The notes below the pieces were generated by a model. The model ran no database searches and was not told the origin of the DNA. It worked only from the letters and a program-made list of their open reading frames with translations. The position numbers and the translations under genes were made by a program. Below, in pieces: positions 1,213-37,548 of a stretch of DNA of 37,548 nucleotides; the stretch's first letter is position 1; every line of letters starts with the position of its first letter. The DNA is taken from positions 1 through 37,548 of the IMG/VR virus record IMGVR_UViG_3300051213_000590, one strand, 5' to 3'. This DNA is from a virus. Its lineage: Duplodnaviria > Caudoviricetes.

Positions 1213-2029
1213 AACCATGAAGGCTGCAAGGCAGCTTGCTGTAAACAGCCTGAATAGCGTTCAAATTGAAAACAACGCTAAGACTGTTGTTTTAGGAAAC
1301 AGGATACAAGGTTATAAGGACCATCAGATATGTTTGTCTATAGAAGGCTATAATAGACCTGCTAGGCAAACAAATGCAATGGAGATATCATTCAATTGCT
1401 ATGCCGCGACTATGCAGTTAAGCTGTCAAATGGCAGAGTCTATTATTGATATGGTATCTTCAGATAACTACTATATATATCCCGAGCCAACTGTCCCAGA
1501 GGAACCAACTCCCGAACTGCTTTCGTGTGAATTTGCAGCAGGGCAAGAGTTGCAGACTAGTACGACATTTGAGGTTGGCGCAGACGCATTCGTTCTAGAT
1601 GCAAATTTAGATCCAGTATATCTAATTGATGGAGACTACACATTGACGGACGGAACAACATTTTCCATAGTCAACAAGTTGATCTCTGTCTGGGAGGCTG
1701 GCGAATTTGGAGAAGGAGACCTTGTCTCAGCAACATTTGCTTCAGGACAAATTATTGAAACTGCTGATGAGGAGATTGTTGTCGGATCTGTCGTTTTTGT
1801 AACGTCAAATGAGGAAACACTTCAGCTTTTAAGCGGAGACTACTTGACATTTTACGAAAGACCATTTTCAATCGAGGTATCTGCCGTTACGGAATGGGGT
1901 GAGATTACGATGACCATCACTGACGATGAGGCTACTAGATACACCGTGAATTTCGTTGATATGTATCAGGACTCTCCTGACTCTGACTTCTTTAAGACCT
2001 CTGTTTCACTGAAGTTCACATATAAGTGA
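1196..2029 (+). CDS. Putative tail terminator/completion protein (DUF3168/SPP1 gp17-like) with an acidic tandem-repeat insertion
   Basis: N-terminal ISFNCYAATMQLSCQMAESIID and C-terminal DMYQD..DFFKTSVSLKF resemble tail terminators. The centre holds two ~60-aa acidic repeats. No other terminator candidate is present in the tail module. Confidence 0.45.
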   Translation: MVNIYETMKAARQLAVNSLNSVQIENNAKTVVLGNRIQGYKDHQICLSIEGYNRPARQTNAMEISFNCYAATMQLSCQMAESIIDMVSSDNYYIYPEPTVPEEPTPELLSCEFAAGQELQTSTTFEVGADAFVLDANLDPVYLIDGDYTLTDGTTFSIVNKLISVWEAGEFGEGDLVSATFASGQIIETADEEIVVGSVVFVTSNEETLQLLSGDYLTFYERPFSIEVSAVTEWGEITMTITDDEATRYTVNFVDMYQDSPDSDFFKTSVSLKFTYK

Positions 2030-28485: not shown

Positions 28486-28587
28486 TAGTCAGGGCAGGAT
28501 TCGAACCTGCAATGTGGGCTCCGTAATGAGGGTCGTACCATTTCGACTTACCGAACTTGAGTCCGTTTACCTATCCACTACCTGACT
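28486..28587 (-). ncRNA. tRNA-like RNA with an expanded, non-canonical central region
   Basis: Acceptor AGTCAGG/CCTGACT-A, D-loop-like GGATAGGTAAAC, T-arm GCAGG-TTCGAAT-CCTGC; 102 nt; no standard anticodon arm. Confidence 0.7.
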
Positions 28588-35277: not shown

Positions 35278-35456
35278 TTCTTGTCTACTTTTTGCCAGCC
35301 ATAGCCCGCGTAATATCCTGGACGATTGTTGTCATATACCTCAAAGTATTTTTTGAGAGTCTTGAATTTCTTGGTGCGCTCAGGGATGGACACAATACTG
35401 CCCACGAAGAACACGGTTTTCCTAGACCTTTGGTCTTTCAAGTAGTACTCAATCAT
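35274..35456 (-). CDS. Hypothetical protein
   Basis: ATGA-coupled ORF. Confidence 0.55.
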   Translation of the reverse strand: MIEYYLKDQRSRKTVFFVGSIVSIPERTKKFKTLKKYFEVYDNNRPGYYAGYGWQKVDKK

Positions 35457-35538
35457 TTTTGATAGCCTCGATTAGTTGATACGCTGTGAACACGCCCACA
35501 ATTGTGAGCACGAGAACGATGACGATTGAACCGAACAT
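35449..35538 (-). CDS. 29-aa single-TM peptide
   Basis: MFGSIVIVLVLTIVGVFTAYQLIEAIKND; A-rich start context. Confidence 0.45.
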   Translation of the reverse strand: MFGSIVIVLVLTIVGVFTAYQLIEAIKND

Positions 35539-35549
35539 TTCTTTTTTTT

Positions 35550-35870
35550 TTACAGCCACCGAGGGCTAACAAAACGGTCTACACTTGAATTCTTGGATTC
35601 TTGGATTCTTGCAGGCTTAACCTTCACAATCCTCCTTTGTATTGAGCTACGACCCACCGAAGAGGCTCGAAACATAGATCCTCCTGAGCCTACTGCATGG
35701 AATGAACGTGCGCCACCGCCATGCACGCCGCCACCTTTGCCGCCACCGCCGCCCACTATGAACGTAGGACGCCCCGTGCAGCTATCGAAGTTCGCGAACT
35801 GAGCAGAGCACACACCGCCCCCAATTATTGAGAGCAGCACAACAAAACACATGACTTTTGAATTCATCAT
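35550..35870 (-). CDS. Putative secreted Gly-rich basic protein
   Basis: Signal-peptide-like N-terminus with cleavage VCSA|Q, a Gly-rich tract and an Arg/Lys-rich tail. Confidence 0.55.
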   Translation of the reverse strand: MMNSKVMCFVVLLSIIGGGVCSAQFANFDSCTGRPTFIVGGGGGKGGGVHGGGARSFHAVGSGGSMFRASSVGRSSIQRRIVKVKPARIQESKNSSVDRFVSPRWL

Positions 35871-35920
35871 TAACGGAATTAGTTAAACGGTCATGAGCCA
35901 CCCTAATAGGCTGGCGAATT

Positions 35921-35970
35921 TGGGCCTGTGGTGGGATTCGAACCCACCTAGCACACCTAGTGCACAGGCC
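35921..35970 (-). ncRNA. Mini tRNA mimic 1 (acceptor stem plus T-arm only)
   Basis: GGCCTGTG-CACTAGGTGTGCTAG-GTGGG-TTCGAAT-CCCAC-CACAGGCC-CA. Confidence 0.7.
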
Positions 35971-36119
35971 ACCCCCAAAGAGGTTGATACCTACAGGTAG
36001 CCCCATAGGTTCAAAACACATAGTACATACACCTTTGCAGTACGCTACACACCCCACCAAACAGCCAGCACACCCCACAAAAAATGAGCACGAAGGAGCC
36101 GAAGAAAATAGAAGGGCCT

Positions 36120-36193
36120 CGCACGTGTGTACGTGTGCGCGTGTACGTGTGTACGTGTGTGCGCGTGTACGTGTGCGCGTGTGTGCGCGTGTG
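36120..36193. repeat. 74-bp perfect alternating purine-pyrimidine tract (Z-DNA prone)
   Basis: cgcacgtgtgtacgtgtgcgcgtg...gtg with no break in alternation. Confidence 0.9.
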
Positions 36194-36478
36194 AGCGTCT
36201 GCAATTTCGCCCCCCTGCACCTGCACAAACGTTCCCGGGAACGTGTGAGGGGGCCGCGCGAATATTACTAGCCGCGCCGGTCACGTTGACCTTTCCGCCC
36301 GCCCCGCAGGGTTGGGCAGATAGGTTAACTTTCACCAAATTTCGCGTCTGTGGCCTCTTGTTATTGCTTAAGGTGTGGACGCTCACCTATATACGTCCAT
36401 GCATAACGCAGCCCGCGAAATTTCCGCTAATCGTTAACCCGATATCTCAATGAACGCAACGTCGAGGATAAAATAAAT

Positions 36479-36527
36479 GAGCACACGTAGGAATCGAACC
36501 TACCGGGGCCGCCGTTCGGCGTGTGCT
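36479..36527 (-). ncRNA. Mini tRNA mimic 2 (acceptor stem plus T-arm only)
   Basis: AGCACAC-GCCGAACGGCGGCCCCG-GTAGG-TTCGATT-CCTAC-GTGTGCT-C. Confidence 0.7.
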
Positions 36528-36537
36528 GGTGCGGAAC

Positions 36538-36927
36538 TTATTCCGCCGTATCGCAAATAATTTGATACAAGTCGTATGCACTCATGATAGATGCGTGAAT
36601 CGATTCGGCCGTATGAACGAATGAGGTAGTAAATGCCCGCGCCGTATCTCCTCCCGCTACTGCAGAAAAATTGATATCGGCCGAATTAAACACGCTAACG
36701 CCGTTAACCTCCACACGAATCGTGTGCATAGCCGTCAGGCTCCAACTTGTTTTCGATGTAGCCTTCGCCGCGCGCATACCTAGCGCGAATTTGGCGAAAC
36801 GATTCGCGGCAATTGCTACGGCGGTGCGTTCACTTACGGCGCGCTCGACGTCGACTGCAAGGTGGCGAACAATTGTTCCGCGCTTCGCATGGCAAATTGC
36901 CATTACTTCGATTTGGGTAGTTTCCAT
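36538..36927 (-). CDS. Hypothetical protein, probable first early gene
   Basis: 129-aa ORF downstream of the TACCTTTG box. Confidence 0.7.
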   Translation of the reverse strand: METTQIEVMAICHAKRGTIVRHLAVDVERAVSERTAVAIAANRFAKFALGMRAAKATSKTSWSLTAMHTIRVEVNGVSVFNSADINFSAVAGGDTARAFTTSFVHTAESIHASIMSAYDLYQIICDTAE

Positions 36928-37014
36928 AACTGAAAAAATTTAAGGGTTTGTTATTCATTGTTATTCGGTCGGCGGGTTGCATCCGTTGACGCCCCCCCTT
37001 CGTTCCGACCTTGA

Positions 37015-37022
37015 CAAAGGTA
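37015..37022 (-). promoter_or_regulatory. Bacteroidota-type -7 promoter box (TACCTTTG), candidate early promoter
   Basis: Exact TAnnTTTG on -, about 90 nt upstream of ORF 36927. No -33 TTTG at canonical spacing. Confidence 0.55.
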
Positions 37023-37304
37023 CGAACAACTTTCGCCGATTGATTCACTCGGATGCAAAAAAATTCGAGAAAATAGCCGCTATATATATGTAGACTTTGC
37101 CACCAGCACCGAAAAAATAGCGGACGCGCGTCCCATATGGGGAAAAATTAGCGCCGATTCGATGCGCCAAACATCGAACGAAGGAACGCCACACACCCAA
37201 ACAGTTTGGTACTAGTAATTACGCTAAATGCAAATAACTAAAACAAAACGGTCGGATGTTGTTACTAATTAAATGCAAGTAATTCGAATGTATAAACTAG
37301 TGCC

Positions 37305-37457
37305 ATCGACGAAACAAGGGAAAAAATTATACACCCCCGAATTTTATACTACCGACGAAACAGCGGAAAAATTTATACACCCAAAATTTATACTATCGAC
37401 GAAAGGGGGGAAAACATTATACACCCCGAACGTATAAATCCGTGAAACATCGACGAA
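37305..37457. repeat. Three ~45-bp imperfect tandem repeats plus a partial fourth
   Basis: A(T/C)CGACGAAA...GGAAAA..TTATACACCC...TATA units start at 37305, 37351, 37395; ATCGACGAA again at 37449. Confidence 0.85.
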
Positions 37458-37548
37458 TGCGTGAAACATACGTGGAAAATACGTTGCAAACGGCTGAAAC
37501 CCCTGTATTTGCTGGCACTCCAGGGGTAGGGGGGTGCCAAAATTATAC

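Follow-up and report, generated by a model that had tools for sequence, protein, structure and literature searches.

Anticodon-less mini-tRNAs between phage genes as candidate RNA-processing signals

What is the top half of a tRNA, an acceptor stem stacked on a T-arm, doing ten bases behind the first leftward gene of a tailed phage? The DNA that raises this question is a whole virus record of 37,548 bases (hereafter the window, meaning the entire stretch analyzed), in which 51 open reading frames (ORFs) were scanned. Genes for terminase, portal, capsid, tape measure and amidase lie on the plus strand; the minus strand carries primase, exonuclease and small genes whose function is mostly unassigned. 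The genome contains no integrase or resolvase family, tyrosine integrase included.

The first leftward ORF encodes a protein that matched neither a family nor an Atlas entry and for which three homologues were found. We infer that it is an early gene from its position and from a promoter-like motif upstream, TAnnTTTG, which has the same letters in the related loci L001 and L163 and is the putative start of the transcript that carries the tRNA-like element. We take TAnnTTTG to be the consensus of the Bacteroidota -7 promoter element. Because this motif is present and a Shine-Dalgarno-like motif precedes just one of 39 genes in the window, a Bacteroidota species is the likely host. When cultured phages were searched by protein, the matches had mixed hosts. 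Parvibaculum was rejected as host: the only genome match was a 33-kb contig in a Parvibaculum bin, which is likely a mis-binned phage contig. Several short repeats with a GTATAA core lie near the record end (37300-37548), are kept in L001 and L164, and are possibly origin or packaging signals.

A predicted tRNA fold reduced to acceptor, T-arm and a small D-arm

37015..37022, minus strand: TAnnTTTG motif upstream of the first leftward ORF
36538..36927, minus strand: ORF of 129 amino acids, the first in the leftward arm, with its stop codon 10 bases ahead of E1
36480-36527, with discriminator C at 36479, minus strand: E1, a mini-tRNA of 48 bases with no anticodon arm and no encoded CCA
36521-36527/36480-36486, minus strand: acceptor stem of E1, AGCACAC/GTGTGCT, seven Watson-Crick pairs
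36508-36520, minus strand: mini D-arm of E1, four pairs, loop ending in GG
36487-36503, minus strand: T-arm of E1, 5-bp T-stem GTAGG/CCTAC and T-loop TTCGATT
35924-35969 (35923..35970 including an extra pair), minus strand: E2, a second mini-tRNA of 46 bases, with a 7+5 bp stack and GG in a 15-base linker

The 17 bases between the acceptor stem and T-arm of E1 comprise the mini D-arm and a 4-base linker. The initial annotation had described them as replacing both the D and anticodon arms and as holding a hairpin with a two-base loop (GCCG-AA-CGGC). The anticodon arm is indeed gone, but a shrunken D-arm with its GG is retained, and both the minimum-energy fold and the register shared by relatives give a hairpin of four pairs with a 5-base loop (GCCG-AACGG-CGGC).

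A scan of the window for this layout returned E1, E2 and two longer tRNA genes, while, for linkers of at most 30 bases, no such element arose in 1000 dinucleotide-shuffled versions of the window. The 7-bp acceptor and canonical T-arm originally proposed are borne out at 36480-36527, and the proposed start of the element 10 nt past the stop of ORF 36538-36927, on the same strand, also holds. The folding energy of E1 is modest (z -1.98; 10 of 200 shuffles fold equally well). E2, which may form an additional G-C pair (35970/35923), has a z of -3.44, with 0 of 200 shuffles as stable. As had been anticipated for tRNA scanners, ARAGORN called neither E1 nor E2 in the window. Rfam assigned E1 to no family and scored E2 at 22.5 bits against mascRNA-menRNA, for which the cut-off is 42.5, and an exact search of viral contigs for the 3' half of E1 gave 0 matches.

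A separate tRNA-like element of 101 bases, with a 70-base inner region, lies at 28487-28587 on the minus strand between a tRNA-Met gene and a small ORF. It is missed by ARAGORN, reaches 31 bits against the Rfam tRNA model (cut-off 29), and is retained by L164 apart from a single A-U to G-U change.

Alleles and distribution of the element

Three close relatives have the same locus (L001, L163 and L164), and each carries a mini-tRNA at the place of E1, 5-9 bases past the stop of the same gene. In comparisons of the window with L001 and with L163, eight of the 16 pairs of E1 differ in both bases, none differs in one base only, and none is broken. A phage with 66% terminase identity (L177) retains the E1 layout as well, and the inner loop ends in CGG in all five E1-type sequences, L177 included. 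Letters change, yet the stack, the T-loop and the mini D-arm with its GG persist, a pattern suggesting that the fold is under selection. Between the window and L001, however, E1 has an identity of 60%, against 88-93% for its flanks, and L001 and L164 share one E1 allele. Block exchange is therefore likely, and the events are fewer than the changed pairs: with only three distinct E1 alleles, the eight double changes may represent one block swap rather than eight events.

E2 is identical in L001 and L163. In L164 a different mini-tRNA takes its place, of a type that is present three times in the record G005, and still closes the stretch that begins behind E1. E2 alone could form a histidine-like G-1:C73 pair, so a reading of the elements as charged minihelices was dropped. 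Directly behind E2, window positions 35540-35890 are not alignable with L001 5447-5752, a swapped small-gene module. Larger tRNA-like elements with acceptor, T-arm and odd inner regions occur in L177 (769-849), L186 (~1410-1495, minus strand) and L176 (526-601 and 2120-2181); in L177 and L186 the larger element stands directly behind a mini-tRNA, forming tandem pairs. ARAGORN called none of these larger elements in L176 or L177.

Beyond the close relatives, 179 loci (1.86 Mb) retrieved via neighboring proteins were scanned strictly, with a sum of acceptor and T-stem of 12 bp required. The scan gave 15 matches, two of them with longer linkers (25 and 28 bases), whereas each of 10 shuffles gave 0-1. 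When viral contigs were searched with a motif, 37 loci were returned; ten have a perfect 12-bp stack at the matched site, six of these ten being in additional records. Letters not fixed by the search pattern were counted in a set of 17 matches, which includes near-copies and one match that is probably part of a true tRNA: GG is present in the linker of all 17, CCA is encoded at 74-76 in 0 of 17, C73 occurs in 12 and A1-U72 in nine, and an ORF stop lies at most 15 bases upstream in ten. The split between acceptor and T-stem varies (7/5, 6/6 or 5/7) around a sum that is always 12, as the scan demands, and lengths across the class range from 40 to 51 bases. In G005, three identical copies lie between small genes, each 6-8 bases past a stop-like codon. 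No mini-tRNA was found in most of the related records examined or in the scan of Flavobacterium phage snusmum6-1, and the element is therefore dispensable in many phages. Eight contigs of 47-100 kb (L197, L203-L205, L209, L211, L213 and L216) share one tRNA-like element whose acceptor has 7 bp and whose T-stem is imperfect.

A search with the G005 element matched unannotated gaps in mycobacteriophage Konstantine and its kin. Konstantine has seven elements in a region of small genes, five of them 6-8 bases past an annotated stop; Streptomyces phage Endor1 has eight, Gordonia phage MakoManhole three and Sheen one. Many elements of these four phages mismatch at the first pair, leaving 11 bp. In mycobacteriophage Wildcat, the 16.3 kb examined contain six perfect stacks, and 199 of 200 shuffles gave none. 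Four Wildcat elements lie in intervals 162-163, 163-164, 164-165 and 168-169, the four 'Motif 1' intervals in the excerpted text of PMC7474061; the correspondence is by interval, and these elements differ from E1 in a T-stem that closes with C-G and in a linker of 20 bases. The same text presents Motif 1 as a conserved intergenic sequence motif of unassigned role in the most highly expressed early region, reports low points of RNA-seq coverage at these gaps with neither promoter nor terminator found, and calls the region mosaic. Such dips would fit cutting without proving it: they are reported for intergenic gaps generally, including gaps without an element in our scan, and can result from poor reverse transcription of structured RNA. 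In Wildcat (L347) gaps 166-167 and 167-168, a second motif of PMC7474061 has a hairpin, GGU and a TCGAA-type loop; it failed the scan and may be a more degenerate form of the element. The excerpted text of the paper on phage Patience contains nothing on such motifs.

The RNA between E1 and E2

A structured non-coding RNA lies between E1 and E2; this bracketing had been missed in the initial annotation.

35971..36478, minus strand: non-coding stretch bracketed by E1 and E2, about 500 bases (277 in L164)
~36200-36478, minus strand: covarying multi-helix RNA, the first ~275 bases of that stretch (L001 4868-5150; L163 770-1045; L164 18266-18542, minus strand)
36371..36399, minus strand: predicted pseudoknot, a 6-bp hairpin plus a 5-bp loop pairing
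36447..36455, minus strand: boxA-like motif shortly after E1; the window copy is degenerate

Across four sequences (the window, L001, L163 and L164), 34 of the 74 named pairs show changes in both partners, and pairing holds in 95.9% of cells, compared with 38-47% when partners are slid; the structure was derived from the same four-sequence alignment on which it is scored, which favors it, and all four alleles come from close relatives. In the pseudoknot region, 44 of 44 cells are paired in the four sequences and five of 11 pairs have changed on both sides; for the 5-bp pseudoknot helix alone, all 20 cells are paired and two pairs covary.

Rfam assigned the bracketed RNA to no family, and microRNA and snoRNA matches to its AC repeat fell far below the cut-off. 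A loose motif of the RNA returned at least 120 loci, mostly chance matches; a tighter motif returned only two already known records, and a profile search of all collected loci just the four known alleles. A conserved protein in the first half of the stretch was rejected, as there is no shared start and L164 has none of the 25 codons. The second half contains an AC-rich repeat (~36115-36195) with predicted pairing to a GT-rich tract (~36040-36085); both tracts are present in L001 and L163 and absent in L164.

The boxA-like motif is nearer to the Bacillus subtilis consensus in L001 (4889), L163 (780) and L164 (18517, minus strand), and similar motifs lie by mini-tRNAs or in early leaders of L177 (692) and L176 (420). 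The L001 motif agrees with 11 of the 13 letters of the B. subtilis consensus given in the excerpted PMC13753749. As a lead only, the motif could load Nus factors for antitermination.

Precedents and explanations for the element

In plant mitochondria, t-elements set mRNA ends through cleavage by RNase P and RNase Z (PMC1920247, in excerpt), and the t-element T-arm motif has an exact match in E1 at 36490-36500. In a Haloferax construct, two flanking t-elements release an RNA via RNase P and tRNase Z (PMC4326828, in excerpt). Mini-tRNAs share with t-elements a non-canonical, non-coding tRNA-like fold with the T-arm motif at RNA boundaries, where a flanking pair can release an RNA. They differ in occurring in phages of bacteria, in being 40-51 bases long and repeated between genes, and in being known from sequence, whereas t-element ends were mapped experimentally. 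Bacterial RNase P has other non-tRNA substrates, including pre-4.5S, pre-tmRNA, OLE RNA and some phage-induced RNAs; these provide precedent for phage transcripts, but in the excerpted text of PMC4919922 none is described as a free-standing module of acceptor and T-arm that recurs between phage genes.

The likeness to mascRNA and menRNA lies in a 7-bp acceptor, a small D stem-loop that follows directly and carries two G, a canonical T stem-loop and the lack of an encoded decoding function; the D stem-loop of mascRNA begins at base 8, and its two G dock on the T-loop (PMC11693755, in excerpt). mascRNA keeps an anticodon-equivalent stem (nucleotides 19-33), in contrast to the 3-4 base linker of the E1 type, and stands in a eukaryotic lncRNA context that is absent for E1 and E2. 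Membership in mascRNA-menRNA (RF01684) was rejected, since E2 scores below the cut-off, E1 has no match and the anticodon-equivalent stem is missing. By analogy, the elements may work like a t-element or mascRNA while standing outside RF01684 by score and by that stem. We infer an elbow contact between the D-loop GG and the T-loop, the letters for which are present in all five E1-type sequences.

Other known classes were rejected as well: canonical tRNA (RF00005), given the missing anticodon arm and no ARAGORN or Rfam match for E1; the tRNA-like domain of tmRNA, of which only the T-arm matches (14.3 bits compared with a cut-off of 47, and none by ARAGORN); and bacterial Y RNA of the YrlA type, which had no Rfam match.

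In our judgment E1 is probably a cis-acting, t-element-like cut signal for RNase P and RNase Z of the host, which is assumed to possess both enzymes. The parts that are kept (T-loop, 12-bp length and GG) are what these enzymes read; the parts that are lost (anticodon arm, acceptor identity and encoded CCA) are those on which decoding, charging or anticodon nucleases would depend (PMC13434031, in excerpt). RNase P and RNase Z recognize the stack of acceptor and T-arm together with the elbow; t-elements and mascRNA are among their substrates (PMC1920247 and PMC4919922, both in excerpt). The tRNA mimicry and the putative processing signal proposed in the initial annotation gain support from compensatory changes, from the kept stack, T-loop and GG, and from placement at stop codons in many phages.

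Under this proposal, the linker GG would dock on the T-loop to form an elbow as in mascRNA, RNase P would cut the 5' end of E1, and RNase Z or exonucleases would cut its 3' end. The cut before E1 would create the 3' end of the first early mRNA; the cut behind E1 and that before E2 would release the bracketed RNA with defined ends; and the cut behind E2 would create a fresh 5' end for the genes that follow. The excised stub would itself be a by-product, to which CCA may be added. More tentatively, as a serious possibility that falls short of being probable, phages of at least two bacterial phyla may use 40-51 base mimics of the tRNA elbow as punctuation, by which an early transcript is cut to single-gene messages and a pseudoknotted RNA is excised, with the marks replacing terminators and being exchanged as modules.

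The relation to terminators can be viewed behind the capsid gene, where we compared 56 loci with a capsid match, representing 35 distinct related sequences. A tRNA-like element follows the capsid gene in 11 of the 35.

Capsid-side elements, late operon, 42 to ~70 bases: L090, L091, L101, L106, L107, L109, L132, L133, L135, L139 and L149

A run of four U follows a hairpin in two of the 11 sequences with the element compared with 21 of the 24 without it, although the capsid-side label needs only two changes on the tree, so that these are two independent contrasts, not 35. L134 has neither the U-run nor the element.

Placement of this kind would also suit a fold that is left uncut, remains on the mRNA's 3' end and blocks 3'-5' exonucleases or aids termination. 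Elements do sit just past stop codons, that of L139 occupies the place of a terminator hairpin with U-run seen in its sister L142, and in the window and L163 E1 has a U-rich run behind it. However, L001 lacks that run and in L164 it is interrupted, and terminator-like sites in 35400-37548 number 0 (2.6 in shuffles), observations on which an intrinsic terminator was rejected. E2, moreover, comes after a non-coding RNA rather than a gene, and a plain hairpin would suffice as a barrier, with no need to keep the T-loop, the 12-bp length or GG. We therefore consider an uncut barrier or pause site unlikely.

The product could instead be the freed stub, a small RNA that receives CCA and then soaks up or misleads tRNA-targeting defenses or sensors that read the acceptor end or elbow; this we likewise regard as unlikely. 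The frequencies of A1-U72 (9/17) and C73 (12/17) suggest some selection on the acceptor end, and a first transcribed region would presumably give early, high levels. Yet a stub with no anticodon loop lacks the target of the anti-phage tRNases named in the excerpted PMC13434031, CCA is encoded in none of the 17 matches, acceptor letters vary freely among close relatives, and one copy per gene gap, with no array, fits a role in cis. The missing anticodon loop and CCA leave the decoy function suggested in the initial annotation less well supported. A free stub would also need the same cuts, and thus adds to the cut-signal explanation more than it replaces it.

Start codons stand 14-29 bases behind the element in G005, L004, L020 and L139, Shine-Dalgarno motifs are nearly absent (1/39 genes), and a boxA-like motif follows E1. 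These features would suit an elbow that serves ribosomes or a phage protein as a platform, coupling translation of the neighboring gene or loading an antitermination complex. Behind E1, however, there are ~275 non-coding bases and no start codon, in actinophages the copies stand before genes that have purine-rich start motifs of their own, and the boxA-like motif is degenerate in the window, all of which makes a platform very unlikely. Least probable is a role at the level of DNA, as an attachment site derived from a tRNA or as a repeat causing the early region's genes to shuffle: the three identical copies in G005, the different region behind E2 in the window and L001, the block-swapped look of E1 and the mosaic Wildcat region (PMC7474061, in excerpt) would agree with it, but the genome lacks a tyrosine integrase or resolvase family and pairing is kept where sequence is not (points on which an attP tRNA-fragment site was rejected), the 5' acceptor strand, needless for an attachment site, is present and co-varies, and shuffling may be a side effect.

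For the cut signal that we favor, no description of such elements between phage genes was found in searches of an openly accessible literature library. This locus adds covariation at the level of alleles, a pair of elements that brackets a new structured RNA, the contrast of swapped terminators, and cultured phages with a published expression pattern. If the proposal is true, it would reveal an overlooked layer of early phage expression that is run by host enzymes of tRNA maturation, and would place a mitochondrial-style principle of punctuation in bacterial viruses, with a natural double t-element cassette like the engineered form. It would explain the unexplained RNA-seq pattern of Wildcat, be testable in cultured phages and point to small non-coding RNAs between such marks. 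The elements would then also offer RNase P and RNase Z natural minimal substrates, and supply compact parts with which multi-part transcripts can be cut in bacteria.
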